A model generated the notes under the pieces. It was given only the letters and a program-made list of their open reading frames with translations. It was not told the origin of the DNA and searched no databases. 64,000 nt of DNA, taken from the IMG/VR virus record IMGVR_UViG_3300025150_000002, positions 64,001-128,000 of that record. One strand, 5' to 3'. Below are positions 6,940 to 53,417 of this stretch, piece by piece (within the stretch, counting starts at the first letter, position 1; the number at the start of each line of letters is the position of its first letter). This DNA is from a virus. Its lineage: Duplodnaviria; Caudoviricetes. The translations under genes were made by a program, and so were the position numbers.

Positions 6940-7404
6940 TTAGAGACCCTGGTTGCTCCCGTAGTTGGCGTTGTGAAGGCCGAAGTCGAACCGGCCGGTG
7001 ACACCACTGTTGGCGAGCGTGCCAGCGGTGACCTTGATCACCGAGACGCGGACACCAGCCTCGTCCTCCTTGATGATCAGCCGAGCCAGCAGGTCGGTGG
7101 TGATCTGAGCGTTGCCGAGGTAGGCGTTCAGGGTCGTGCTGAGCACGGTGCGGACGACGTTGCCGCTCCAGTCGATGATCTCGACTGCACGAACAGCGGC
7201 GTCGGCCACGGCAAGCACAGCGTTCAGCTGCAACACCGCGAGGCCACCCTCGAACTCCTGACGAGTGTAGGGGCGCACGACGTGGTCGATCGTGTTGCGC
7301 TCGACCGGAAGGTTGCGAGGCCGAAGGACCTCAAAGGGTACCGCTGCGACATTGGTCACACTGGCCAATGCTGACGGCACACCGTACTGAGTGCGGACTG
7401 TCAT
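6940..7404 (-). CDS. Small virion protein
   Basis: AGGAG SD, 154 aa, co-oriented with the 6437 gene. Confidence 0.65.
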   Translation of the reverse strand: MTVRTQYGVPSALASVTNVAAVPFEVLRPRNLPVERNTIDHVVRPYTRQEFEGGLAVLQLNAVLAVADAAVRAVEIIDWSGNVVRTVLSTTLNAYLGNAQITTDLLARLIIKEDEAGVRVSVIKVTAGTLANSGVTGRFDFGLHNANYGSNQGL

Positions 7405-33971: not shown

Positions 33972-36900
33972 CTAGTGCCGACCGTGTCCCCGCCCACGGC
34001 CCTGCGGTACCAGCTTGCCGTTACCGTTGCGAGACATGTAGGTGTGCTTGAGCTCTCGAATGAAGTGTTCGGTCTGGGTCAACCTGTGGGCGAGCGACTT
34101 GTTCTCGATCATGGCCTTCCGGAGAGAGTCTTGGATCTCAGCGTCGCGAGCCCTAGACTCCCGGTCCAGACGCTCTTCCAGACGCCGAGCCTGGTCATAG
34201 CGCTTCCATTCATTCTGGGTGTTGGGCCGCCCCGCCACTCCAGGGGGCGGTCCGATGTCCATCGGGGGCGGTGGACCTCCAGCCCCACCGGCGAGGGCTG
34301 GGCCCTCCATAGGCAGCCCGCCGGGTCCACCCGCACCACCACCACCACCGCCTGCGTCGCCCATCAGCTTCTGCTGCTCAGCCTGCTTCTTCATGTCCTC
34401 TTCGCGCTGCTTCTCGATCACATCAATCTCGTCGTCACTGAGCTTGAGGATTCGCTCCTGGATGTAGCGCATAGACACGAAAGGCTGGACGCGCGTGGCG
34501 AAGTCAGCCCGAGCGTTCTTGATCTCGTTGTGTGCCAACTCGTAGATCCCCGACGGAACCGTCATCATGACCTGAAGGTCTTGGTTGAACGGGTTGATAC
34601 CGCGCGAAGCCAGGTCGATTTGGATCAACCGACGAATAGTGTTCTTCATCTCGCGCTGAATACCCATGGTCACACGGGCGGCCCGAACGTCTTCGAACGA
34701 GAGGATCGTCTTAGGAGGCGGAGCATCGTCCTGACCGAGGTAGCTGCGCGGAACCTTGAGCACGCCGTGCAGCTTTCGGGCGAAGTACTCGACATCCTCT
34801 GTGGCCTGGTAGTCGGGACCCTGTAGTACTTCGACGCGGGCCAACTCGCGGTTCTCGCGGACTGCAATGAAGAAGTCCTGCATGTTGTCCATCGGGTTGT
34901 AGCGCATGTCCAGGCGCTGCGTGTTGTGGACAAACACACCAGCGGTCAGGGCGAAGTTGTGATAGTCCTCCACGGTGATGTCGTAAACATCCTCAAACCC
35001 GTCCGGAGTTACGCTGACCACTGTGTGGTTGTTCTTGCCGGCACCGACCAGTCGCCTTTCCTTCTTCTTCTGAGGCCCGCTCTTCCGCTCACCAGTTCCT
35101 GCAACCTGCTCCTTGTAATCGGCGAAGCTCTTGAAACCGCGCCGCTTCAAAAGCGCGGTCCAGCAGCCGCGACTCAACTTGGGCTTGATGGTTGTAGGCA
35201 GGTCCGCATAGATCCGAATGAAGTCCTCTTGCCCGTTGAGCCACGCGACCATGTCCTGGGACGTGATGGTCGGGTCGTTGTGCAGTTTCTGGTCCACCAT
35301 CGCGAAGACCAGGTTGTAGAGGCAATCAGCCCGCTCTGTCTTAGTGGCGGCCGCCTTTTTGTTGGCCTCGCTAATCTTCTCAGGATTCTCCTCGCGCCAA
35401 TCACGGATACGCCCGTATAACTCCTGCTTGAACACCGGATCATTCTGGGCCCTCTCTTTGAGAGCCTTCCGGGCCGCCTGGAGATGAATGGGGTGCCGAC
35501 CACCGGCGTGGTCTCCGGGGGTGATCGGTTCCAGATTTGACGGGTGATTGTTCTCCTTGTTTTCGTCACGATGATGGACATGAAGACCCTTGGCCTTGTA
35601 GTCCGGGTCAATCAGCTCCTCTGTGACCATTTGATGGACGTAGCGCTGCTTACCAAGCCCCGTGTCCTTGTACTTCCAGTAGTGCTGCGTCTCCTTGCTA
35701 CCGCGAGACAGGTAGAGGGGCATGAGCGACTCACCCTTGACGAGGTCTTGGGCCTGCTTGTAGGAGCCGTTTCGCAGCAGGAAGGGGTGGTCTCCTGTGC
35801 ATCGAACGATGGCGCCGCTGTCTACCACGACCCGGTAAACGGCCTTCTTCTTGCCTGAGAGGCCAGCGGCCGTGATCTTGCCGGGAACTACCCTGTGCCG
35901 CTTTGTATCGTAAGAGAATACGTAGTGGTGCTTCCCTTCCTTAGCGAGCCTGGGCACCTCCTCCGCCAGATCGCGCATCGACCTGTCCTTACCATCGAGA
36001 CAGGTGACCGGGGTTTCACCGGTGAGGCAGCGCGGGTTCACGAGCTTCTGCTTGCGCATGTCCTGCTTGGCCTTACGCAAGAACGAGTCGACCTTGTCCG
36101 AGGGTATATCAGTGACGTCGATGTAAAACGCGAAGCGTGCTGGCGCTCTTGTGTTATGGACACAAACCCCGTCTGCGATGAAGTTGTGCTCTTCGTCTTC
36201 GACGCCGATGTCCCAAATATCATCGACGCCGACCACTTCGACTCCACGCAGGGGCTCTGTCAGTGGCTGCTGCTTGAACGTGATGTCCATGCAGTAGGAC
36301 GTAGTGCCCTTCAGCGGCTGGGTCGACCCTGCGATGGTGCGGCCACCTTCGCGGGTTCGCTCGCGCACGAAGGTGACTACCAGTCCTAGCTGCATCGCGA
36401 GCTCGCGCACATCTTCGAGGAGTTGCTTGTTGCACAACTCGAAGCGCGCCTTTTCAAATCGGGTCTTGCGGCCCTCCCTGCGCGGGATGATGTGGGCGTC
36501 CGCATCAGCGAGACCACGGATCATCGCGAGCTTGATCTCTGGACTCGCGCGGAACACCCACTCAGGAAGGCGCTTGTCGTGGGCCCCCGGAATGAATCCA
36601 TTGAGAAGCATGAACTCGGCGAACTTGCTTGAGACAAATGAGTAGGCCCCGAGGCGGTAGTCCTGGTCATTGACCAGCTTCACACCTGGAACATAGCGCT
36701 CGAACAGGCCCTTGTAGCGATCGTTGATTTGGTCGTCCTCGCCCAGGGCAAATCCGATCTCGTTCTGTGAGACGAACCCGCCCTTTTGAGTCCTGGTGGT
36801 GATGAACCCGTCACCAAGCATAAAGCCCCACCACCGGGCGAAGTCTTCGTCGACTACATCTGGGACAGTGACTCCCTTTACCGGGATTCCGCGATCACCG

Positions 36901-38681
36901 CCCCAGTGCTCCTCGACATCGAGGTGCTCGTCGGTGTAGCCGTTAGCTTCAAGTAGCGCTACCGCTGTCTCTGTCTTCAACTCGTAGTCGCCGTTGAAGA
37001 AGTCCCTGGCGCGGTAGTGGTGAACTCCCATCGACCTAGCGATGTCCGGATAAGTCTGCCTACGCACGACCTCGTTCGGAGACCGCAGTCTCGCCTTCGA
37101 GTGAAGGTCAGGCTTCTTGAGTTCGATCTCCTCCCAGTCGTCAGTGTTCTTCTTGGGGGTCACGAGGCGGTGGCGCGTCGGGTCGAGATCTTTCACCTCG
37201 ACGTACTTCAAGAACCTGGCCTTGGGGCGGCCCTTACCCTGCCCGATGATCTCCTCAACCAGGACTGGGTGGGTGGCGTTCGCGTACAACTCGCGATGGT
37301 CACTGAAAACCCGGTAGATCTTGTCCTGCCCGTTGTGCTTCTTGTAGCAGACCCGGGTCTTCCGGAGCTTGTCCTCCTTGGTGAAGGAGTAGACCTCATC
37401 GCCCTCTTCAAGCTCCCTGATGGCCTTCCGTCCTTCGGGGGTCCAGATCTGCGAATCGCCGCGTAGGCAGAGCTTGTAGATGAGCATGGCATCTTCGAGG
37501 AGGACGAGCCGCTTCCAGATCCACCGTGCTCCGTCAGCTACACCGTAGCCGTATGGGCAGCGGCGAACCGTGCCTCGCAACCGTGAGTGCAGGACCTGCC
37601 ACTCCTCGAAAAGCGCTACGTGGTCAGGCACCTTAGTCTGGCCCGCGAGCATGCCGCGCAGGTCCGTGGCGTCCTGAGTGAATTTACCGGTGACGTCCTG
37701 AACGTAGCCGATGAGCGCGCCGTTCGACTGCTCCACGCGCCTCATGGTCGGGACTGGCAGGGAGTTTAGGCCGACGACACCATTCTCGGTGACCAGAACC
37801 TCTTCGTAGTTATTGCCCATCTTCACGGTCGTGTAGACCATGCTCCAGATATCGTCCTCAATCCTCAAACGCCTGTTGAGGAGCGTATCAGTCATGTCCT
37901 TGATGGCTTCGTCGCCCGAGTGAACCCATACGGTCTTGCCTGTGTCGATGTCTGGCTGGGTAGCATCGTTGGTGAAGTAGTGATGTGCGCTGTTATGCAC
38001 AACAACTCCGTTGGCAACGAAGTTCTTGGTCCCGGTTGAGACGTCGTAGACGTCTTCTTCTCCTGCCGGCTGGGCCGCCTGGACGACACGCAGGGTCCCT
38101 GAGATTGTGTGCAGGAAGGAGCACATTCCGTGCGCCTCGAAGCCTGCCCACGTGGAGACGACTACCGTCCCCTCGGTCATGTCAGATGCGTTGATGTAGC
38201 CGTGTTCAACCGTGAGGAACTTGTGATCTGGTGTACACCGGATGTTCTCACCGTTACTGAACCCGAGCTGCACGACTGGCTGCTTGTTCCCGGTCACACG
38301 CGGGTTATTGGTGACCGTCTTTGTAAGTCGCTGCGTCTTGGTGTCGTAAGCGAGGATCTCTACCCCACCACCGTTAGCCGCCAGATCGTGTAGACGGAAG
38401 GGCTTGATGATCGAACCATCAACCACATAGATCAGCGTGTCGCCGGTAAGGCAGTTGATGTCCGGGTAGTCATCCATCTGCTCGTAGTCGGCATACCTGT
38501 CCATCAGGTTCTGCGAGACCGAGAGCAGCCCGCCTACATCCTCTCGCCCCCACACCGAGAACATCGAGGTCGGGATGTGCTTTTCTGCATCAGCAGAAGG
38601 CGATTCGGCCCTGTCACGTTCTGCGCGCTCTCGGCCAAAAACTTGGCGAAGGTAATTCAGCGCATCGTCTCGAAGTGCCAT
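33972..38681 (-). CDS. Portal protein, T4 gp20-like, with three inteins (about 607 aa after splicing)
   Basis: Extein motifs YEQMDDYPDI, LEDAMLIYKL|TRAPARFAFYIDV, MQDFFIA, EDVEYF..KL..VLKVPRSYL. Confidence 0.9.
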   Translation of the reverse strand: MALRDDALNYLRQVFGRERAERDRAESPSADAEKHIPTSMFSVWGREDVGGLLSVSQNLMDRYADYEQMDDYPDINCLTGDTLIYVVDGSIIKPFRLHDLAANGGGVEILAYDTKTQRLTKTVTNNPRVTGNKQPVVQLGFSNGENIRCTPDHKFLTVEHGYINASDMTEGTVVVSTWAGFEAHGMCSFLHTISGTLRVVQAAQPAGEEDVYDVSTGTKNFVANGVVVHNSAHHYFTNDATQPDIDTGKTVWVHSGDEAIKDMTDTLLNRRLRIEDDIWSMVYTTVKMGNNYEEVLVTENGVVGLNSLPVPTMRRVEQSNGALIGYVQDVTGKFTQDATDLRGMLAGQTKVPDHVALFEEWQVLHSRLRGTVRRCPYGYGVADGARWIWKRLVLLEDAMLIYKLCLRGDSQIWTPEGRKAIRELEEGDEVYSFTKEDKLRKTRVCYKKHNGQDKIYRVFSDHRELYANATHPVLVEEIIGQGKGRPKARFLKYVEVKDLDPTRHRLVTPKKNTDDWEEIELKKPDLHSKARLRSPNEVVRRQTYPDIARSMGVHHYRARDFFNGDYELKTETAVALLEANGYTDEHLDVEEHWGGDRGIPVKGVTVPDVVDEDFARWWGFMLGDGFITTRTQKGGFVSQNEIGFALGEDDQINDRYKGLFERYVPGVKLVNDQDYRLGAYSFVSSKFAEFMLLNGFIPGAHDKRLPEWVFRASPEIKLAMIRGLADADAHIIPRREGRKTRFEKARFELCNKQLLEDVRELAMQLGLVVTFVRERTREGGRTIAGSTQPLKGTTSYCMDITFKQQPLTEPLRGVEVVGVDDIWDIGVEDEEHNFIADGVCVHNTRAPARFAFYIDVTDIPSDKVDSFLRKAKQDMRKQKLVNPRCLTGETPVTCLDGKDRSMRDLAEEVPRLAKEGKHHYVFSYDTKRHRVVPGKITAAGLSGKKKAVYRVVVDSGAIVRCTGDHPFLLRNGSYKQAQDLVKGESLMPLYLSRGSKETQHYWKYKDTGLGKQRYVHQMVTEELIDPDYKAKGLHVHHRDENKENNHPSNLEPITPGDHAGGRHPIHLQAARKALKERAQNDPVFKQELYGRIRDWREENPEKISEANKKAAATKTERADCLYNLVFAMVDQKLHNDPTITSQDMVAWLNGQEDFIRIYADLPTTIKPKLSRGCWTALLKRRGFKSFADYKEQVAGTGERKSGPQKKKERRLVGAGKNNHTVVSVTPDGFEDVYDITVEDYHNFALTAGVFVHNTQRLDMRYNPMDNMQDFFIAVRENRELARVEVLQGPDYQATEDVEYFARKLHGVLKVPRSYLGQDDAPPPKTILSFEDVRAARVTMGIQREMKNTIRRLIQIDLASRGINPFNQDLQVMMTVPSGIYELAHNEIKNARADFATRVQPFVSMRYIQERILKLSDDEIDVIEKQREEDMKKQAEQQKLMGDAGGGGGGAGGPGGLPMEGPALAGGAGGPPPPMDIGPPPGVAGRPNTQNEWKRYDQARRLEERLDRESRARDAEIQDSLRKAMIENKSLAHRLTQTEHFIRELKHTYMSRNGNGKLVPQGRGRGHGRH
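34923..36029 (-). mobile_element. Portal intein 3 (HNH, 369 aa)
   Basis: CLTGET..TGDHPF..VHHRDENKENNHPSNL..NFALTAGVFVHN|T. Confidence 0.9.
36153..37469 (-). mobile_element. Portal intein 2 (LAGLIDADG, 439 aa)
   Basis: CLRGDS..GFMLGDG..IRGLADADA..NFIADGVCVHN|T. Confidence 0.9.
37992..38453 (-). mobile_element. Portal intein 1 (mini-intein, 154 aa)
   Basis: CLTGDT..TPDHKF..NFVANGVVVHN|S. Confidence 0.9.
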
Positions 38682-38720
38682 ACGAGTTCCTGTATTCCAG
38701 ACAGTTAGCTCGCGTCTACT

Positions 38721-39452
38721 CTAGCAGGACGGGAGCTCCAGAAACACACCTGAAACTGCCAACGAGCCCATAGATCGGACAGATGCGGTGAATACTTCTT
38801 CCAACGAGCCTGGTGTGACACGCGTCACCTTGTGGTTCCGCCGACCGCGCTTTCCGACGATTTTGGCCATCTTCGGTGATGCGGCAGCGCACTCATCCAG
38901 GATGTCTTTCGCTAGATCGAGCGCCTTGATGATCTTATTCCGGTGACGCTTTTTAGCCCGATTCGGGTTGATGATGATATTCAGGTTGTCGGGGTGGTAG
39001 TGCTTTCGGTTCTTGTCGATGTGCTCGACTGTGGTACCTGGGCCGAGCGGGTGCCCGAGCTTCCACTCGGCGATAAGTCTAGCGATTTTCCGCTTTACGT
39101 AACGACCAGGGATCCTGTAGGTCGGATAACCATAGACATCTTCTTCGAGGTAAAGGGGGAGCAGCGAGTCGCCTGGGACTAGTTCAGGGGGCATCTTCCG
39201 TTCGCCAGACCGCATGACGAATCGGGATGATGGCGAGACCTGAAGCTTCGCTCCGTCGTCGAGCACGACCTCGAACAGTTGCTGAAGTCCGATCGACTTA
39301 ACCCCGCCCACTTCACCTAGAAAGAAGGTCCCGGAAGACCACACAAAGGCCGTCTCGGTGTAGTCAGGGTTTAGGACAGTTCGATTCGACAATTCCGAGA
39401 TTTTGGTTGGGCCAGACACCGTCTCGATGCACATGTCGCCGCGCAATCCCAC
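38721..39452 (-). CDS. Free-standing degenerate intein-like (Hint plus HNH-like) protein
   Basis: GLRGDMCIET (block A with Cys1 replaced), SPSSRF (block B without His), EHIDKNRKHYHPDNL, NHKVTRVTP, LAVSGVFLELPSC (block G without His-Asn). No exteins. Confidence 0.75.
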   Translation of the reverse strand: MGLRGDMCIETVSGPTKISELSNRTVLNPDYTETAFVWSSGTFFLGEVGGVKSIGLQQLFEVVLDDGAKLQVSPSSRFVMRSGERKMPPELVPGDSLLPLYLEEDVYGYPTYRIPGRYVKRKIARLIAEWKLGHPLGPGTTVEHIDKNRKHYHPDNLNIIINPNRAKKRHRNKIIKALDLAKDILDECAAASPKMAKIVGKRGRRNHKVTRVTPGSLEEVFTASVRSMGSLAVSGVFLELPSC

Positions 39453-39460
39453 CGAACCCT

Positions 39461-40747
39461 CTACAGTCCTGCCATCAAAATGGGCTCACGTGTGAGCTCA
39501 TCCTGGCTCTCCGGCTTCACCGTTTGCTCAGCCCCTGACGCATCGATCACCGTGAGGCCTCTCGCCGATATCACCATCCGGAACGGGGTGATCCCGACGT
39601 ACCTCCTGCCGGCTCCCTTCTTCAAGTAGGCAACCGTAAGATGTGGAATGTAGTTCGGGCGAGTCGGCGGTCTGGAGTTGGGCAGCTTGGCGATTTTCTG
39701 GTGAAGCTCTCGAATCGAGTCGCCGATGACTTCGATGTAGAGTACGTCGCGCTCTTCGTGCTCGAAGATGTTGAACGTGCCCAGCATGGCCCTGATTGGC
39801 CTGCCGTAGTCCTGAACGATTTGCTGGATAGCTGAGAGATCTCGCTTGTCGGCGCCGTAGTAGACCGTCACATGGGGCCGGTGCTCCAGCTTCAGGATGT
39901 TGTCCTCAGGGATGTTCTTCTGGACCCAGCCAGGAATGCGAACTCGCAGGTAACCGAAGTCGACCTGGGTCTGCAGGAAGTTCTCGTCCTGCTGCTCACG
40001 CTCGAACTGAAGGTCCTCGAATAGACACCCCTCCGTCAACTCAGGCTTGTGGCGAAGGTGGGCTACGAGCTCCAGGAACACCTTACGGACGATAGAACCA
40101 GAGCGACTCATTTCGCGGCCTGCGTGACCGCGCCCAAGAATCACGTTAGCCGCAACTTCGGCAAAGGCCTCCGCAGGGTCTGCGTTCGCGTATTTGCTGG
40201 GGAAAGAGTCAGACACCTTCTTCGTCTTCAGCCACCCCCTGAACAACTCGGGGTCACTCCCATAATGCTTGTTGAAGAAGAACCAAAGGCTCGACTTCTC
40301 TGGACGACTCTGCACGACTTTCGCCAGCGCGTCGGCGGCTGCCGGGTCATAAGGTCTCCCGACGACCTCACACAGAGTTGCCCACAGTTCACGGGCGTCG
40401 TCACTCATGTGCTTAACCCATATTCTGTGCATCGTCTCATGGACGATGGTCCACAGATAGTCAGCGGCTCCACGAATAGGTGGGTAGAAGATGACTGACT
40501 TGTCATCTTTTGGAAAGTAGCGCCCGTTGGCCCGCTCATCGTCCTTTCGGTGAACAATCTCGATCTTGCCGCCGAAGTCCTTGTCCGAGAAGCCGAACGC
40601 GCGCATCTTTTCGACGGCTACGTAGATCGCGTTGAGGAACTGTCCTACCTCCTCAGACGGTACCTCACCGTCAGATCCCGGCTGCATAGGTCCGGGTGTG
40701 CGGACGCCTGGCGTGAGCAGTCGGAACGCTGAGATAATTCGGTCCAT
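39461..40747 (-). CDS. Zincin-like (HExxH) domain fused to a 2H phosphoesterase (Acb1-like) domain
   Basis: IVHETMHRIW plus KYANADPAEAFAE. Two HxT motifs: PHVTVYYG and PHLTVAY. Confidence 0.75.
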   Translation of the reverse strand: MDRIISAFRLLTPGVRTPGPMQPGSDGEVPSEEVGQFLNAIYVAVEKMRAFGFSDKDFGGKIEIVHRKDDERANGRYFPKDDKSVIFYPPIRGAADYLWTIVHETMHRIWVKHMSDDARELWATLCEVVGRPYDPAAADALAKVVQSRPEKSSLWFFFNKHYGSDPELFRGWLKTKKVSDSFPSKYANADPAEAFAEVAANVILGRGHAGREMSRSGSIVRKVFLELVAHLRHKPELTEGCLFEDLQFEREQQDENFLQTQVDFGYLRVRIPGWVQKNIPEDNILKLEHRPHVTVYYGADKRDLSAIQQIVQDYGRPIRAMLGTFNIFEHEERDVLYIEVIGDSIRELHQKIAKLPNSRPPTRPNYIPHLTVAYLKKGAGRRYVGITPFRMVISARGLTVIDASGAEQTVKPESQDELTREPILMAGL

Positions 40748-41022
40748 CAGTAAAGCTCGTCGGCGCTAAGGTCTTCCCCAGTATAGCCCGGAGTGGACGC
40801 ACGCATCGCCATCACCTTACGGACCAATTCGACGGGAAAGGTCTCATAAGAGCCGTCGAGTAGTTGGATTTGGGCGTATAGACCATCGAGCACGACCTTT
40901 CTGGCCGAGAAAAACGTGCTCTTGTCGTCGAGGTCCGCGAGTTCAACCTCGACGCCCCAAGCAAGGCCCATTTCCTCAGTCGAAAGCCGAGGCTCAAGAT
41001 CCTCTGGATCCACAGTGCCCAT
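40747..41022 (-). CDS. Hypothetical acidic protein
   Basis: 91 aa, stop overlaps the next ATG. Confidence 0.65.
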   Translation of the reverse strand: MGTVDPEDLEPRLSTEEMGLAWGVEVELADLDDKSTFFSARKVVLDGLYAQIQLLDGSYETFPVELVRKVMAMRASTPGYTGEDLSADELY

Positions 41023-41036
41023 TCAGTTCATCCTCC

Positions 41037-41231
41037 CTACGGGATCGTCTCGGTCAACACCCTCGGACCGCCCTGAGAGCCCTGCGCCTCAAGGACCTTC
41101 TGGAAACGATGAGCTGCGGCTTCGTCGACCTCGACTCGGGTGCGCCCGCCGGTCTCGTCCTCCATCGTGACGAACCAGCTCACCGTACCACCGGAGAGAA
41201 GAGACTTGTCTACACTAATGACGCGATTCAT
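41037..41231 (-). CDS. Small hypothetical protein
   Basis: 64 aa, co-oriented with the portal operon. Confidence 0.6.
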   Translation of the reverse strand: MNRVISVDKSLLSGGTVSWFVTMEDETGGRTRVEVDEAAAHRFQKVLEAQGSQGGPRVLTETIP

Positions 41232-41257
41232 TATGTACCCCTAGAGGAGGTCAGGTT

Positions 41258-42073
41258 ATGGAGCATCACGACCATTCTAGCGAGTGTGGTGCTCTGGGAC
41301 ACCAAGTCTCTTCCATAACTACAACTACGGCCACGAGCACCTTGCCCTCTTTCCGGGTATATGTAGATATGGGAACAGACCAACCCGTGGGGCGCGCAAA
41401 CACCGCCGTGACCTTCGAAGCAGCAGATGGAAGCCAGAAGACCTGCATCGACTCTCTGAGAGACGACGCCCACTATCGCTTCTCCTGCAGGTGTGGCTGC
41501 GGCGCTCAGTTCGCTGGATACGGTCGCGACATCAAGGCATCCGGCAAGATCGGCCGAGATGGAGGCAGTATCACATCAACACCTGACGCGGGCGAGTCCC
41601 GGTCAGAGGTTGCCCACGAGGTTCGAACCATGCGCTCCCCACTGCGTCCCTTCGTCTCTGACCGCTACCTGATGAAGGCCATCTTCAAGCTCACGGACGA
41701 CGAGATCGATGCGGCACGCGCGAACGAGCCCGATCCTCTTGAGGGGAAGGGCGTGAACCTATCGGAGCGCAGGCCGCCAGCTATCGCCGACGAGGTCTAC
41801 TCTCTGTCTACCGGAAAGGGTCCGTTCACGCTCATTGACCACGTCAGCAAGAGCCTCAGTGACGAGGATGGCGCATCTCACACGGTGGTCTGCGGACTGC
41901 TGCGGAACGCGGCCGGCAAACTGGTGGTGGTCCCGTTGGCCGACTTGGTCCTCGCTTCCCCGGACCGCGAGTTGCGGCGCCCGTCGAAGGGCTCCTGGGT
42001 CATGCTGACCCTCGCTATGATCTTGTCCTTGGCGATCGGGTCCGGGATCGCACTCGGCTACTTCTGGCCCTAA
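41258..42073 (+). CDS. Membrane-anchored mosaic protein containing a portal-like segment
   Basis: CRCGCG motif, PFVSDRYLMKAIFKLTDDEID segment, C-terminal transmembrane helix. Start uncertain. Confidence 0.65.
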   Translation: MEHHDHSSECGALGHQVSSITTTTATSTLPSFRVYVDMGTDQPVGRANTAVTFEAADGSQKTCIDSLRDDAHYRFSCRCGCGAQFAGYGRDIKASGKIGRDGGSITSTPDAGESRSEVAHEVRTMRSPLRPFVSDRYLMKAIFKLTDDEIDAARANEPDPLEGKGVNLSERRPPAIADEVYSLSTGKGPFTLIDHVSKSLSDEDGASHTVVCGLLRNAAGKLVVVPLADLVLASPDRELRRPSKGSWVMLTLAMILSLAIGSGIALGYFWP

Positions 42074-49000: not shown

Positions 49001-52000
49001 CAAAGAATTCGTGGTCCGGCGTGGCCGTGAGCTTGATCCCGTATTCGAGGTTCACATCGACGACGGAACGAACTCCAGGGCTCCAGGTCGAGTCGGTGTA
49101 GCGAATCTGACCATCGTCAGACATGATCCCGATACGCTTCTTGAACCTGTCCGGCTCGGTCACCACCTCGCCCATCTCAAGCAGCCCGTGCTCTGTAAGG
49201 AGCATGGCGTCAGCGGTCACGCAGTTCTTTGCCAACGGATTACGCTTAACTTGGACGTCCTCTGCAGTTCGTTGGTGAAGGTCGACGTGTCGGCAGCGCT
49301 TCTGATGCTCGATGTTTGACAGGCCGCACCCGGGACAAAGCGCCGGGTTGCTGTCGGTGTCCGGCAACCACCCCTCAGGCTGCCACGTGTGGCCGCACTC
49401 GTTGCAGGACCAGTTCAGGTAGCGATCGCATGCTGCGCCGTCCTTGTTCCTGCAATGACCGGTGTTCAAGAACACCTCGATCATGTTGAGCTCGTTTGCC
49501 AGGTGGGCTGCCATCCGCAACTCCATCTGCGATTGGCCGCTCACCAACCCATTCTCTAGGACATACGTGTGTGTCCCCTCGACGGTGATCTGCCAAACCT
49601 CCCGCGAACCCACCGGAGTAATCGACACGATTCGATGATTGTCTGATTTCGCGCGGCCTCGATTTGCGCAGGACCTACCGCAGAACCTTGCTGCGCTCTT
49701 CGTAGGCAGGAAATCCTGGTTACATGTTAAGCACGCTTTAGTCCCTGGCTTACCAGACGTAAAACACTCGCGGGAGCAGAACCGAGTCTTTTTTCCGTCA
49801 CTTCTGTAATAGACCACCCCGCACCGGGCGCAGGTCAGGTCACAGCCGTTCTCGCGTGACTTGTGATAGCACGCTCTGCTACAGAACTTACCGTCTGCAG
49901 AAGGTGGTTGGTAAAACGCACTGCCGCAGGAAGCGCAGTTAGTCACGGCTCCCTTCAGGTTCCCGTGATTTGGGTTTCCGTCTGCTTTATAGGATCGACG
50001 GTTCTTCCTCTGGCCTTCGACTAATTGCTGCTTCTTTCGCCGGCGCTGAGATAGGGTGGCCGCGTCCCACCAGCGCTGAGCCCCCTGCCCCCTGTTCTCT
50101 CGGCTGGGCAACCACCGCAGATTAGCACCTCTGTTATCAAAGGTGTCTCCGTTGATGTGGTCGGCATCGTGGCCCTCAGGACGTTCCCCGTGAAAGTGCT
50201 CAGCGAGTACGATGTGCTGAAACGCAGCAACCCCGCGAACCGCCCACATCTTATATCTACCTAGCTGTGTCTCGCGCACGTGAGCCAAGCGATCCCCTGG
50301 ATTCAAGTACTTGGTCTCAACGAGACGTCCTCCGTATGTCATCCATTTATGATCCTCGGTACAAATCACCGATGACCCGTCTTCTAGAACCAGTTCTACG
50401 CACGGAGCAATACCGACCTTGCCACCGGCAACCACTGGTCGAATCTCTAGACTTCTCCCATCGGCAGATGACAACACCGGAGTCTCTGTAGCTGCTACCT
50501 CTTCAATCGGCATGACCCCATTGACGGTGACAATCGGGGTCCCAGCGACCAAACAGTAGTCGGCGTCTATCAGGCATAGCTGAGATCGTTCCTCGTCGTA
50601 ATCGTTCTCTAGATGGGCGCAGAATGCCTTTCGGATCAGATCCTTGTCCCGTGGTTGGTTCATAAGATTCACGGGGTCCGCCGAGTTGTGATTGACGAAC
50701 CCTTGAGCCAGGTAGCTGTGGTCACCCTCTACGGTGATGTCCCAGACATCTTCGACGCTGACTGGAGTGATGCTGGTAACTCGTGCCCAAGTTCGGACGC
50801 GATTCTCTTGATCACCGTAGGGAGGGCCTTGTCGATCTGCTTCGTAGTGAACCTCACCACTCGGTAGCCAAGTTCCTTCGCCTTCTTCGCCTTCCGACGA
50901 TCCCTGGCCTTGGTCTTCTCGCACTTCCGGTGAAACTCGCCATCGACCTCGACCAGTAGTTTCTTTTCTGGCCAAGCGAAGTCCGCTTGCCAGTTCTTGA
51001 AGAAACAGAACAGACGCCGATGCGGGATTCCAGCCGCCGTCAAAGCTCGTGAGAGTCTCATCTCCCGACGATTGGCAGAAAAGGTTAGATGGGACTTCTC
51101 GATCTCCCCGCGCTCGATCAGAGCCTGCATGAACGATCCGCTCTGCTTGACCGCACTCGCTAGAGACATCAGTCTCTGATACGCCTCTACCAGGGAGGCA
51201 AACGCCTTGGCCGGGTCGGTCGACAGCTTCGATACTTGTGGACATAGCGCCGCAAGAGCTTTGTACTCGGTATCCGTGAGCCTGCTGATCCAGGACATCG
51301 TTCCGTGAGTGTGCGCTGAAATCCCGTGATGTCGCATGTCCATCAGGACAATGGATTCCCCCACCCCAAGCTGATCTGCGATCTCGACCGCCGACAGACC
51401 CCTGGACACCTCGGTCTCCAAAAGATTCTTGGGGAAGAACGCCTCCTCGTTCCTCTTGGATGCGCTCAGGAGCCTGCCGTGCTTCACTGCCAGGTCGTCG
51501 GAGAACTGCTTGTAGGTCTTGACCGCCCTGATCAGGGCCTGATGAGATACGCCGAAGGCTACCTTGGCCTGCTCTTGCGTCAGATTGCTGTCGACGAAGA
51601 TCCTCTTGAACGACGCCTTCGAGAGTATGAATCCCTTCGAGCGATCTCGGCGAACCCATGTCGGCTCGTCGGGAAGGATGTCCTCCAAGTCCGGGAGCTT
51701 GGTAGGGTTCCCCCGAAACAGTTCGGGGAACTCCCATCCGTACACTGCCTTGCAGGTCAAGCTGATCCCATCCGACAGCCCGTACAACTTGGCCTTCTTG
51801 TAGACCGGCCTCGGGTCCTCGGCGTAGACCCTGATGAACGAGGGTCGATCTAGCACCCAACGTCGTTGCCTGACGGGCCGCCTTAGTCTCACATACCTCG
51901 GCTCGAAGCAGCCGGTCCCCTCGTTCGAGGTCCTTGAGATCACGCCACCCATTGTTGGTGAGGAATCTGTGGTCCCTTGTGCATCTGATTCGATTTCCGT

Positions 52001-53417
52001 CATCGGTCACCACCTCGAACATCAGGTCTGGGCCCTTGTTGAACAGGTTCAACACTCGCCCCTCCCGACCCTCATGGGTGATGATCATAACATCAGTTCC
52101 TGCAAACCGACCAAGTTCTGAGATTCTGACTGAACGACGGAAGTTCTCTCCTCTCAATCGGATAGAGAGCTTTGATGTCCCAGAAATGCAGCTGAGGCGA
52201 CCAATGACGGTCCCCGTCTGTCTAAACCGAGCGTAGATCCGACCCTTGTTGTCTGGATCGTTGGCGAGCGAAATCAACTTCTTGCAGAAGCTGCTGTCGA
52301 TAACGCTGAGCGAACGATACTTCAGCAGCTTGCCGACCAGTGGAAACTGATCCTTGCGGTGTTTGATGGCCTTGTCGCCGGTACCGTACTGTTCGAGCTC
52401 CTCGTTGTAGTCGACACCTTTGGTGGGTAGCCCCAGCCCACCCTTCTCTGGCGGGTTGTAGAGGAAGTCGGACACCTGCTTAGGCGAGCGCAGATTGGGG
52501 ACCCAGCCAACAGTCTCCTTGAACTCGTTCAGGATCTCCTGCTGCTCTTTGTTGATCCGCTCCTGAACAGTGACCAGCCACTCCCAATCAATAAAGCAAC
52601 CAGTGATCTCCATCTCCATGAGGATCCGCTGGATCTTCATCTCGATCTTCCAGTAGATCTTCTCCAGGTCGGAGTAGACGCCGGGCGTGTCGTCTAGTGG
52701 TGAGCACCACTCGCCCTTGTGCTTGCGCGGAGGGTCCTGCTTCCGCATGGAGTTTATGGCCCATTTCCAGAGCCGATAGGTCCAGGCACAGTCGTCGGCA
52801 GCGTAAACGCCCAGAGGCTTCTTGTTCGCGAAGCCGAAGGTGGCTTGGCCCCCAAAGGCTTCACTGTAGGTGGTCATCTTGTGGCCGAAGACCTGATCGA
52901 CTCGTGGCTTCAGACCATAGCGCCTCAGCCGTTCGTCCGCGATGTAGTCCGCGAGCATGCTGTCAGCGATGACGTTGTTGACGATCAACGGCTCGTCGAG
53001 ACCGCTCTTTAGGTAGAGGAAGGCGTCGTCGAAGATACCGTTGTGGCGGACCGCAATGATGTGCTTGAGGTCCCACAACTCTCGAAGCTGAAGCATGGTG
53101 GAGCGCTGATCAACCGGTTCACGAAGCGCACGCACTTCGCCATCAACCGTGTGCTCCATCGTTCCGTCCGTAAACGGAAACCAGGCGCGAACTGGTCGCT
53201 GCGATGGATTCTTTTCGTTTGGGACGTAGAAGGCTACACCCTCTATACGATCCTTACGGGGCGACAGCCCTGTTGTTTCCAGGTCGTATGAAAAGACGCC
53301 TTCTTCTTCGGCGCGCTCAATCAGATACGGGACGGAGACATCGCAAGTATCGGTAGGGTCCCAGGAGTTACCTTCTTGGTTGGGCTTAACTTTAGCTTTG
53401 GACCTAGCCACCAACAC
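46032..53417 (-). CDS. polA: Family A DNA polymerase with 3'-5' exonuclease and four inteins (about 741 aa after splicing)
   Basis: Exonuclease YDLETTG, HNGIFD, YAADD. Polymerase TGTVIGRLS|S, DADY|SQMELR, AKN|SNFGLLY, QFRVSG|SCQD, IQVHDEL. Confidence 0.93.
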   Translation of the reverse strand: MLVARSKAKVKPNQEGNSWDPTDTCDVSVPYLIERAEEEGVFSYDLETTGLSPRKDRIEGVAFYVPNEKNPSQRPVRAWFPFTDGTMEHTVDGEVRALREPVDQRSTMLQLRELWDLKHIIAVRHNGIFDDAFLYLKSGLDEPLIVNNVIADSMLADYIADERLRRYGLKPRVDQVFGHKMTTYSEAFGGQATFGFANKKPLGVYAADDCAWTYRLWKWAINSMRKQDPPRKHKGEWCSPLDDTPGVYSDLEKIYWKIEMKIQRILMEMEITGCFIDWEWLVTVQERINKEQQEILNEFKETVGWVPNLRSPKQVSDFLYNPPEKGGLGLPTKGVDYNEELEQYGTGDKAIKHRKDQFPLVGKLLKYRSLSVIDSSFCKKLISLANDPDNKGRIYARFRQTGTVIGRLSCISGTSKLSIRLRGENFRRSVRISELGRFAGTDVMIITHEGREGRVLNLFNKGPDLMFEVVTDDGNRIRCTRDHRFLTNNGWRDLKDLERGDRLLRAEVCETKAARQATTLGARSTLVHQGLRRGPEAGLQEGQVVRAVGWDQLDLQGSVRMGVPRTVSGEPYQAPGLGGHPSRRADMGSPRSLEGIHTLEGVVQEDLRRQQSDARAGQGSLRRISSGPDQGGQDLQAVLRRPGSEARQAPERIQEERGGVLPQESFGDRGVQGSVGGRDRRSAWGGGIHCPDGHATSRDFSAHSRNDVLDQQAHGYRVQSSCGAMSTSIEAVDRPGQGVCLPGRGVSETDVSSECGQAERIVHAGSDRARGDREVPSNLFCQSSGDETLTSFDGGWNPASASVLFLQELASGLRLARKETTGRGRWRVSPEVREDQGQGSSEGEEGEGTWLPSGEVHYEADRQGPPYGDQENRVRTWARVTSITPVSVEDVWDITVEGDHSYLAQGFVNHNSADPVNLMNQPRDKDLIRKAFCAHLENDYDEERSQLCLIDADYCLVAGTPIVTVNGVMPIEEVAATETPVLSSADGRSLEIRPVVAGGKVGIAPCVELVLEDGSSVICTEDHKWMTYGGRLVETKYLNPGDRLAHVRETQLGRYKMWAVRGVAAFQHIVLAEHFHGERPEGHDADHINGDTFDNRGANLRWLPSRENRGQGAQRWWDAATLSQRRRKKQQLVEGQRKNRRSYKADGNPNHGNLKGAVTNCASCGSAFYQPPSADGKFCSRACYHKSRENGCDLTCARCGVVYYRSDGKKTRFCSRECFTSGKPGTKACLTCNQDFLPTKSAARFCGRSCANRGRAKSDNHRIVSITPVGSREVWQITVEGTHTYVLENGLVSGQSQMELRMAAHLANELNMIEVFLNTGHCRNKDGAACDRYLNWSCNECGHTWQPEGWLPDTDSNPALCPGCGLSNIEHQKRCRHVDLHQRTAEDVQVKRNPLAKNCVTADAMLLTEHGLLEMGEVVTEPDRFKKRIGIMSDDGQIRYTDSTWSPGVRSVVDVNLEYGIKLTATPDHEFFVMRGGKVERVMAADLRPDDPCLIMTGRDVHGKDVALPSIDVVGGNALKDIDLPTEMTPEVARFFGYFVSEGRMVTDESRGYYQMPFGFGDCSVEMVEDFIGCWRLVVNDRTITEHHPLDKEATHYTVASKKLNLWMAHLGFKSCSGEKDIPRCVRSAPWSLKREFFRALFEGDGTVKAVGKARNSFAIVYTSKSEKLIRQIHAEMMNIDILGFIHSEMRPTLKGEQPYWCWTVRRQRDIERFAERVGFVSTEKSDKLLEAMAPQSADYANRFLDGVEVLLESIYDKTKRKRKDKLREVIRRKKSPVRFGDTRLELLEDVLPDEIKAYRDAGIWTAKVRSVTDAGEAPVFDVYEPERTAMICNSVAVLDSNFGLLYRMGAPKFCIYAGLFDEDGNPQIGYGQRLIELWHQAYPGIASWHERTINQLVKDNYIAYNIARRRRRLDTDWQKNDYVAGTKAIQFRVSGCVTPSTPVLTEQGYVSIEDLATDRLPIFDGEKFTSDYDVIDSGVKDVFKVTLSSGRTITCSADHRFATMDGLRMVWTKTSELDSGDMLATHDVLAAGGDDDHGASVDDAYLVGALIGDGYYGSSQGFTLAASARDPGWPESLEESVLRSQGETARKKLRWGLRNTNRGGKVRDLVCNSSRARSNLMILGLDCVSKQAKRIPKWAYTASPELRGAVLAGLIDTDGSVLSYKQKTYTSLTINYSSRVRELVEGAWKLASSLGIDCAIRELDVARTGKKRGMTKQYRLDVSYRGFQAFNRWVPLRHPRKAATLAGALQLIATRAPRRELPRSFVSAVAELASRAPALASRQGSSTAFDDRRMRRRIQTYIGHARTGNAGENMIEAVLDYIDEPGPKEVLGYGWDKVVSVEHVGSSPTYDIEIHGDNHAYIAAGFFTHNSCQDLIKLAMIKLYDARNDKVANSRPAESKLWAKFRFMIQVHDELIFQGPRAMKEELCGLVKTSMESVATGMRVPFTADARAGRTWDELH
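46305..47609 (-). mobile_element. Polymerase intein 4 (LAGLIDADG, 435 aa)
   Basis: CVTPST..SADHRF..GALIGDG..LAGLIDTDG..AYIAAGFFTHN|S. Confidence 0.9.
47898..49223 (-). mobile_element. Polymerase intein 3 (LAGLIDADG, 442 aa, C-terminal Asp)
   Basis: CVTADA..TPDHEF..GYFVSEG..RALFEGDG..AMICNSVAVLD|S. Confidence 0.85.
49533..50555 (-). mobile_element. Polymerase intein 2 (HNH plus zinc-finger repeats, 341 aa, C-terminal Gln)
   Basis: CLVAGT..TEDHKW..DHINGDTFDNRGANL..three CxxC/FCSxxC-type repeats..YVLENGLVSGQ|S. Confidence 0.88.
50685..52190 (-). mobile_element. Polymerase intein 1 (502 aa; middle is the alternative frame of a nested nuclease gene)
   Basis: CISGTS..TRDHRF..SYLAQGFVNHN|S. Confidence 0.88.
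50729..51892 (-). CDS. DUF559/Vsr-like endonuclease nested out of frame inside polymerase intein 1
   Basis: REMRLSRAL..QADFAWPEKKLLVEVDGEFH..RDRRK..LGYRVVRF, with HTH-like repeats upstream. The ORF track starts at 52003; the GTG at 51892 after GAGG is the more likely start. Confidence 0.8.
   Translation of the reverse strand: MRLRRPVRQRRWVLDRPSFIRVYAEDPRPVYKKAKLYGLSDGISLTCKAVYGWEFPELFRGNPTKLPDLEDILPDEPTWVRRDRSKGFILSKASFKRIFVDSNLTQEQAKVAFGVSHQALIRAVKTYKQFSDDLAVKHGRLLSASKRNEEAFFPKNLLETEVSRGLSAVEIADQLGVGESIVLMDMRHHGISAHTHGTMSWISRLTDTEYKALAALCPQVSKLSTDPAKAFASLVEAYQRLMSLASAVKQSGSFMQALIERGEIEKSHLTFSANRREMRLSRALTAAGIPHRRLFCFFKNWQADFAWPEKKLLVEVDGEFHRKCEKTKARDRRKAKKAKELGYRVVRFTTKQIDKALPTVIKRIASELGHELPASLQSASKMSGTSP

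Follow-up and report, generated by a model that had tools for sequence, protein, structure and literature searches.

What is to be made of a gene that follows the layout of an intein from end to end and stands without a host protein to be spliced from? This question is raised by HH, the name we use for a stand-alone Hint+HNH gene on the minus strand of a 64,000-nucleotide stretch of phage DNA (positions 64,001 to 128,000 of the record IMGVR_UViG_3300025150_000002; hereafter, the window). The genome of the window is a 203,521-bp, 89%-complete IMG/VR virus record from groundwater, in which no paralogues of HH were found elsewhere; HH is a single-copy gene. Loci fetched for comparison carry L-numbers and database proteins carry P-numbers. 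HH and its parts are located as follows:

38721-39452, minus strand: HH, 243 codons plus stop, a splicing-dead, extein-less intein homologue (ORF listing, translation, and the identical 243-aa protein P0003)
39457-39461, minus strand: Shine-Dalgarno sequence of HH, GAGGG, 4 nt before the GTG start codon (sequence)
39153-39452, minus strand: N-terminal Hint half, residues 1-100; the block A nucleophile is absent (Gly2 after the start codon) and block B reads VSPSS, not TxxH (alignments and structural matches)
38838-39152, minus strand: HNH-like insert and basic helical tail, residues 101-205, net charge of about +13 (PHROG, I-HmuI match, and charge)
38985-39023, minus strand: core of the HNH motif, His144 to Asn156 (EHIDKNRKHYHPDN; alignments and residue table)
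38958-38960, minus strand: Arg165, at the position of the last metal ligand, not conserved (alignments)
38724-38837, minus strand: C-terminal Hint blocks F/G (NHKV...GVFLELPSC), with Glu-Leu for the terminal His-Asn, and three residues plus the stop at the place of the extein

Judged by its residues, HH cannot splice: as an initial annotation of this frame had noted, and as can be read directly in the sequence, it has Gly rather than a nucleophile at position 1, no block-B His, no terminal His-Asn, and no exteins. The start codon is followed by GLRGD, compared to CLRGD in an intein, Ser73 and Ser76 replace the Thr and His of block B, and the last strand reads GVFLELPSC-stop where an intein would continue from GVFVHN into its extein. 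The same annotation had correctly described the 243-codon frame as intact and equipped with its own Shine-Dalgarno sequence and start. HH also fails the class 1 intein test of in-frame insertion into a host protein, given its own Shine-Dalgarno sequence, a GTG codon placed at the intein boundary, and a stop three residues past the last Hint strand.

HH begins 8 nt past the stop of the upstream gene, in a different frame, and a gap of 39 nt separates its end from the portal ATG. This portal carries three inteins, as had been described, with limits at residues 77-230, 405-843, and 885-1253. The neighbouring features are:

39461-40747, minus strand: upstream gene, 428 aa, HExxH and 2H phosphoesterase-like (Pfam 2_5_RNA_ligase2 in relatives; tblastn)
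33972-38681, minus strand: T4-like portal gene, 1569 codons, 607 extein residues (Pfam Portal_T4, Intein_splicing in three stretches, LAGLIDADG_3, and HNH_3)
38478-38483, minus strand: empty 'site a' of the portal, Glu67/Gln68 after RYADYE, 9 codons upstream of int1
37992-38453, minus strand: portal int1, a mini-intein, residues 77-230 (Pfam, limits read)
36153-37469, minus strand: portal intein 2, LAGLIDADG type, residues 405-843 (Pfam, limits read)
34923-36029, minus strand: portal intein 3, HNH type, residues 885-1253 (Pfam, limits read)

The upstream 428-aa protein (39461-40747) combines its HExxH motif with two HxT motifs. A promoter scan of 38300-41300 revealed no promoter-like site, and terminator-like matches in this interval remained at chance level. 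HH is very probably co-transcribed with the portal gene, a statement made in the absence of RNA data. Contigs from four DNA runs covering 38200-40100 were identical to the window and therefore provided no information on polymorphism.

The motifs by which HH had been likened to portal inteins 2 and 3 are present (MGLRGDMCIET compared to CLRGDSQIWT of intein 2; GDSLLPLYL compared to GESLMPLYL, and NHKVTRVTP compared to NHTVVSVTP, of intein 3). In a BLASTP comparison with the portal, HH is 31% identical to intein 3 over 131 aa (E 4e-14) and 37% identical over 46 aa at the C-terminal blocks, which is far above chance. In the AlphaFold2 model of HH, built on 41 homologues (mean pLDDT 84.7), the Hint (hedgehog/intein) fold expected by the initial annotation is met: VIA-align superimposes the model on the NrdJ-1 intein (8ubs_A) with Z 20.2 and an rmsd of 1.8 over 141 residues, and on the NpuDnaB intein (4o1r_A) with Z 19.7, the matches covering model residues 1-243 with the middle looped out, and the top Foldseek matches are all inteins (E 1e-7 to mini-inteins). 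The beta-beta-alpha-metal HNH fold is likewise met in the modelled insert, residues 100-162 of which align with the HNH homing endonuclease I-HmuI (1u3e_M; Z 6.3, rmsd 2.6, 62 residues), and PHROG HNH endonuclease families match the middle stretch of the protein with E-values from 1.9e-7 (best) to 1e-5. From the structural and PHROG matches, HH therefore has the layout of an HNH intein, with a Hint N-half, a nuclease insert, and a Hint C-half. The charge of about +13 on the insert is accompanied by a median pI of 9.05 in the family. Sequence searches of solved structures were less informative, as HH gave only weak matches (inteins at E ~0.01, I-HmuI at E 0.25) and the HNH piece alone gave nothing useful; Pfam gave no match to the HH protein at E up to 1, and no LAGLIDADG or zinc-finger family.

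HH belongs to a sizeable family. A search of 5.8 billion proteins recovered 41 close homologues (49-67% identity), all of 191-253 aa and none of them named, and an exhaustive search of representatives with HH yielded 527 matches, including about 30 further stand-alone proteins of 227-266 residues and 25-50% identity, which interleave with true inteins inside proteins of 600-2900 residues. Stand-alone homologues thus number more than 50 (25-67% identity, about 230-250 aa), are intact and without frameshifts, and none of them has Cys1, the block-B His, or the terminal His-Asn. Across the family, position 1 is occupied by Gly, Ala, Ser, Met, or Val, is never Cys, and is not conserved, and in none of the 26 portal-anchored stand-alone members does the column of the block-B His hold anything but Ser, Thr, Gln, or Cys. 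The start codons of the stand-alone genes are located at intein position -1 or +1, and their stops 2-12 residues past the GVF strand. A scan of IMG/VR with the alignment of close homologues returned four loci only, all already known, and the ESM Atlas clusters matching HH carry no label other than 'hypothetical protein'. Among cultured phages, only distant true inteins match the HH protein; the window phage has no cultured relatives, and the nearest cultured portal is about 31% identical.

Constraint on HH was estimated by the pairwise Nei-Gojobori method (NG86) from the three closest pairs only, the remaining pairs being near saturation:

L026/L027: dN/dS 0.08 at dS 0.37
L039/L043: dN/dS 0.18 at dS 0.47
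L032/L051: dN/dS 0.10 at dS 1.0, with Tyr in place of the catalytic His in both members

The Hint part and the HNH part are each constrained by the same measure, and as far as three close pairs can tell, HH is under purifying selection over its whole length across a deep clade of uncultured large phages. For comparison, dN/dS in the same pairs was 0.056 for the 428-aa gene (one pair), 0-0.08 for the portal exteins, and 0.02-0.06 for the live mini-intein; the true-intein pair L037/L035 was saturated in dS and gave no usable value. The domesticated intein suggested by the initial annotation was to be refuted by a lack of orthologues under selection; the orthologues exist at a fixed position with dN/dS of 0.08-0.18, and the suggestion is upheld. 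In the L026/L027 comparison, dS drops from 0.32-0.37 (428-aa gene and HH) to 0.10-0.12 (portal N-extein, mini-intein, and the next extein), exactly at the HH/portal boundary (~7256-7308). This step, seen in one pair only, could stem from a recombination or conversion tract or from codon bias.

The fixed position of HH is beside the portal. A T4-like portal gene is found directly downstream of the HH homologue in 11/11 loci that were anchored on the protein (27-62% identity to the window protein), at a distance of -17 to +56 nt, the exceptions being a TnpB gene inserted in L001 and an 83-codon ORF in L007. As a safeguard against circularity, 30 loci were fetched by a conserved portal extein segment, 26 of which include upstream sequence: a stand-alone HH gene is located immediately upstream in 22 of these 26 loci, three have an in-portal homologue instead, and the remaining one, which has the most distant portal (44% identity), has neither form. 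Given that the 428-aa gene is syntenic upstream in the closer relatives only and absent in distant ones, the portal is the constant partner of HH. Terminase genes do not flank HH in any locus, and the 89%-complete genome contains no Terminase_6N match, although a divergent or intein-split terminase could be missed. Position alone suggests that the role of HH is tied to portal expression, head assembly, or packaging; the tight linkage could, however, merely mark the birthplace of the gene.

Evidence for this birthplace comes from portals in which site a is occupied. The portals of L037/L049, L035, P0056, P0060, P0074, and P0127 read RYADYE, then C...TxxH...GGVF(T/V)HN, and then S or C, and thus contain a complete canonical intein at the site that is empty in the window. 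These site-a inteins score against the family profile as high as the stand-alone members do, and in L037/L049, where upstream DNA is present, there is no stand-alone copy upstream of the portal. In an IQ-TREE phylogeny of 60 sequences, all 52 stand-alone members are placed on one side of a branch with 100/99 support, and the site-a inteins and other HNH inteins, including intein 3 of the window, on the other. The nearest relatives of HH are the true portal inteins after RYADYE, which likely represent its ancestor. The similarity to portal inteins 2 and 3 reported initially is real in its motifs and, for intein 3, in its BLASTP score, but does not make HH their copy, since HH descends from a different portal intein. 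Specifically, a direct copy of portal intein 3 can be rejected (31% identity, and intein 3 groups with other inteins in the tree), as can a recent copy of portal mini-intein 1, to which HH has no detectable similarity. The direction of change was from intein to gene, because the regain of four splicing features is implausible, and the simplest reading is that the intein escaped from the portal once and was inherited vertically thereafter. No duplicated extein remnant was found that would mark the move from after codon 67 to before codon 1. HH is thus an intein that has left its host protein and is now a gene of its own.

Sister genomes preserve further stages of this history. Four arrangements occur in the clade: a true intein within the portal; a mini-intein nested in that intein; HH beside a portal with the mini-intein; and HH together with a dead mini-intein beside an intein-free portal. 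The nested form is found in P0074 (residues 68-470), in which a mini-intein resides in the site-a HNH intein inside the portal. Inteins have a hot spot in the N-terminal region of the portal, and P0056 (residues 68-630) contains a site-a intein followed, without any extein residue, by a second long intein ending in Gly-Gln, and then by a mini-intein. The last arrangement is that of L039, whose 633-aa portal is intein-free and whose HH gene is kept. L039 (6566-7052) and L043 (same coordinates) encode a second stand-alone, splicing-dead Hint gene just upstream of HH. This gene is homologous to portal mini-intein 1, has Gly as the residue at position 1 and Cys-Gly in place of His-Asn, and overlaps the neighbouring genes with its start and stop codons; its dN/dS of 0.42 indicates weaker constraint than that on HH. 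In L041 (6605-7762; IMGVR_UViG_3300032053_000534), the stand-alone HH gene is itself interrupted between blocks F and G by a mini-intein that looks live (Cys1, TPEH block B, terminal HN, and +1 Ser; CFAS...GIVCHN, then S) and that is missing from the adjacent portal. HH therefore behaves as a host protein that is worth rescue by splicing.

As predicted from sequence, all four arrangements would give rise to an identical set of mature proteins, which consists of the portal and of the Hint-HNH and mini-Hint proteins, both in free form. Tentatively, the free HH polypeptide might have been useful to the phage before it left the portal, possibly as a partner of the portal when heads are assembled or DNA is packaged. 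If true, this would be the first viral or prokaryotic case of an excised intein with a host-beneficial function that enabled independence as a gene. Both intein sites lie in or next to portal residues 1-76 (window 38454-38681), which are 89-97% identical among relatives, compared to only 68-77% for the C-terminal extein, and which are not matched in the portals of the nearest cultured phages, the alignments to these beginning at about residue 54-63. By this comparison, the N-terminal 76 residues look like a clade-specific, highly conserved extension that bears both sites.

With moderate confidence, and with its function unproven, we propose that HH is a domesticated portal intein that is kept by selection and acts as a free protein through nucleic-acid binding. 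Its ancestor was most likely an HNH-type intein located in the portal after RYADYE, and its translation now starts from a codon set exactly at the old intein boundary. In PI-SceI and HO, the intein domain takes part in DNA recognition; similarly, the basic HNH-like insert of HH might be displayed on the Hint scaffold for this purpose, and the function common to the sister clades would be binding, not cleavage. Nucleic-acid binding is the most economical inference; binding to DNA is inferred solely on the basis of charge, fold, and analogy, and no biochemical data are at hand. Among the functions that the initial annotation had listed, a DNA-binding protein fits best, again without binding data.

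The first alternative to be weighed is that HH is an active, selfish, free-standing homing endonuclease resembling WHO, which cuts sensitive portal 5' alleles in co-infecting relatives. HH would then be copied during repair along with the adjacent resistant 5' end of the portal, and the purifying selection would be a result of ongoing homing. HH does derive from an endonuclease-bearing intein and is located ~240 nt from the ancestral homing site, and WHO and HO demonstrate that extein-less, intein-like nucleases can reside beside their target gene (bioRxiv 10.1101/2020.01.20.913210). The threefold dS drop at the HH/portal boundary in one pair (0.37 vs 0.10-0.12) is what a conversion tract from the portal 5' end would give; given that it is restricted to one pair and that codon bias is possible, we have no confident explanation for it. 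Within the window's clade, the general base His144 and the structural residue Asn156 are invariant in the alignment of 41 close homologues, and residual nicking or cutting is therefore possible there. The invariance of His144 would also fit an active nuclease, and the binding-only part of our proposal may not apply to this clade.

Across the wider family, the picture is different. In 9/26 portal-anchored members and in ~10/33 wider representatives, the place of the general-base His is taken by Tyr, Phe, Leu, Cys, Met, or Ile, the loss of the His being put at about 35-40% of the wider-family lineages and falling into several separate clades of the tree, and dN/dS still amounts to 0.10 in the pair without the His. 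Because the His was lost repeatedly while selection continued, DNA cutting is not the preserved function of the family as a whole. For comparison of the remaining active-site positions, we used what we take to be the metal ligands of I-HmuI, namely an acidic residue or His that precedes the general base, and a last His/Asn located in the helix. Glu143, the residue before the His, varies in the family between E, K, R, N, S, and G. Where portal intein 3 has its final metal-binding His, HH has Arg165, in a column that is not conserved, with a nearby Asn/Asp162 that is common but not universal. Both observations make an active nuclease less likely. The HNH motif is degenerate in all true site-a inteins. 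Moreover, HH is fixed rather than sporadic, occupying the same spot in the sampled relatives except for the three loci with the in-portal form and the one distant portal (44%), its divergence tracks that of the portal as expected from vertical inheritance, and site a is empty in its own portal, so that the ancestral specificity would be self-destructive. The trans-acting homing nuclease among the functions first suggested is thus weakened, given that about 35-40% of lineages have lost the His under unchanged selection, but not excluded. Altogether, we consider a selfish nuclease unlikely to account for HH; for the window's clade, a WHO-like endonuclease nevertheless remains plausible.

Still less probable, in our view, is that HH acts as a factor binding the portal protein, that is as a cofactor of splicing in trans (an 'intein maturase'), as a decoy for the precursor, or as an assembly partner, with the Hint fold docking on the portal or on the mini-intein. 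Group I intron endonucleases have become splicing maturases, and it is by analogy only that this scenario extends to HH. HH adjoins the portal 5' end and the mini-intein int1 in all four arrangements, and the spacing of the genes, at -17 to +56 nt, points to coupled expression. However, L039, with its intein-free portal of 633 aa and its dead stand-alone int1, keeps HH under selection (dN/dS 0.18), which rules out portal splicing as the general role and weakens the splicing modulator or decoy for the portal precursor that had been proposed at the outset; evidence for an interaction of any kind is lacking.

The view of HH as a recent, decaying, and functionless intein remnant, for which one could cite the loss of all splicing residues and the comparable lone intein of Arthrobacter Arth_1007, an inactive pseudogene (PMC3196547), has next to no chance of being correct and is excluded by the more than 50 intact, frameshift-free homologues of constant length with conserved placement of start and stop, by dN/dS of 0.08-0.18, and by the deep monophyly of the family in the tree.

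The domesticated intein that we propose has its closest analogue, judged by shared organization, in the HO and WHO genes of yeast, which are extein-less, non-splicing, ordinary genes of intein origin with a nuclease domain in the intein fold (Coughlan et al., 2020, eLife 9:e55336; bioRxiv 10.1101/2020.01.20.913210). Like HH, they have no exteins and have kept the intein fold with the embedded nuclease domain, and the WHO genes are located beside the conserved gene on which they act. In contrast to HH, HO and WHO are eukaryotic and of the LAGLIDADG type with a C-terminal zinc finger, the WHO clusters are polymorphic and rich in pseudogenes, and cleavage has been demonstrated experimentally. HH is of the HNH type and partly degenerate, lacks a zinc finger, belongs to a phage, and is single-copy, fixed, and intact throughout the clade, any cleavage activity being putative.

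Comparison with phage elements sets HH apart in other respects. The HNH inteins of phages (portal intein 3, and the site-a inteins of L037, P0056, P0060, and P0127) share homology with HH over their whole length and the Hint-HNH-Hint order, but are in frame in the portal, with Cys1, TxxH, His-Asn, and a +1 Ser/Cys all present, whereas HH has none of these and has its own start and stop. Free-standing HNH enzymes of phages (of the I-HmuI fold; T4 mobE; F-CphI, which engages in 'collaborative homing' with an endonuclease-less intron) share the HNH_3/I-HmuI-like beta-beta-alpha core, and are likewise intergenic, next to a conserved gene with a nuclease-less self-splicing element (for HH, int1). 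These enzymes have no Hint domain, occur sporadically, and keep all catalytic residues. HH, in contrast, is a fixed element of its clade, is often devoid of the catalytic His, and is retained beside portals that have no int1. HNH proteins of the HK97 gp74 type, which Kala et al. are said to have described in 2014, reportedly adjoin terminase genes and need their catalytic His. They resemble HH as small HNH proteins beside head and packaging genes, but differ from it in their terminase neighbours, their requirement for the His, which is dispensable in the HH family, and their lack of a Hint domain. Finally, the near-extein-less Arth_1007 intein of Arthrobacter sp. FB24 is without the block-B His and does not splice (Tori and Perler, 2011, PMC3196547); it has been read as a pseudogene at a single locus, unlike HH, which represents a large family under purifying selection.

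No precedent for HH in prokaryotes or viruses emerged from our searches of the literature on free-standing, extein-less, or orphan inteins, and those on nested or tandem inteins in jumbo-phage portals found nothing relevant. A 2025 survey of actinophage inteins described free-standing endonucleases that invade inteins, and not inteins that become free-standing genes. Domestication as such is already known from HO and WHO; what is new here is its occurrence in phages, with an HNH-type insert and with preserved intermediates. Inteins are usually seen as pure parasites, with the yeast HO/WHO lineage as their one lasting legacy. The present clade contains an intein turned into an ordinary gene under selection, and the surviving intermediates in sister genomes comprise a true portal intein, a nested intein, a live intein in a dead one, and a stand-alone dead mini-intein. 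How selfish splicing elements become domesticated, and whether excised inteins or dead homing endonucleases have functions of their own, thus become questions that this simple system makes testable. For intein research, HH offers a natural, splicing-dead, and stably folded Hint-HNH scaffold, and for annotation, a description of a family now labelled only 'hypothetical protein'.

Two minor observations concern other genes of these phages. In all relatives, TnpB-like genes (OrfB_IS605 / Cas12f1-like_TNB) recur at one fixed position, two genes downstream of the portal:

L001, 15077-16195: TnpB-like gene, two genes downstream of the portal
L002, 13827-14957: TnpB-like gene, two genes downstream of the portal
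L003, 9707-10813: TnpB-like gene, two genes downstream of the portal
L004, 9814-10929: TnpB-like gene, two genes downstream of the portal
L001, 10743-11819, minus strand: extra TnpB copy between HH and the portal

In the window itself, a stretch at about 51903-52040 (minus strand) with weak similarity to HH (E 0.008) lies in a frame of 2464 codons, another giant, intein-bearing ORF, and the gene that corresponds to this frame in the relatives encodes DNA polymerase A with inteins.
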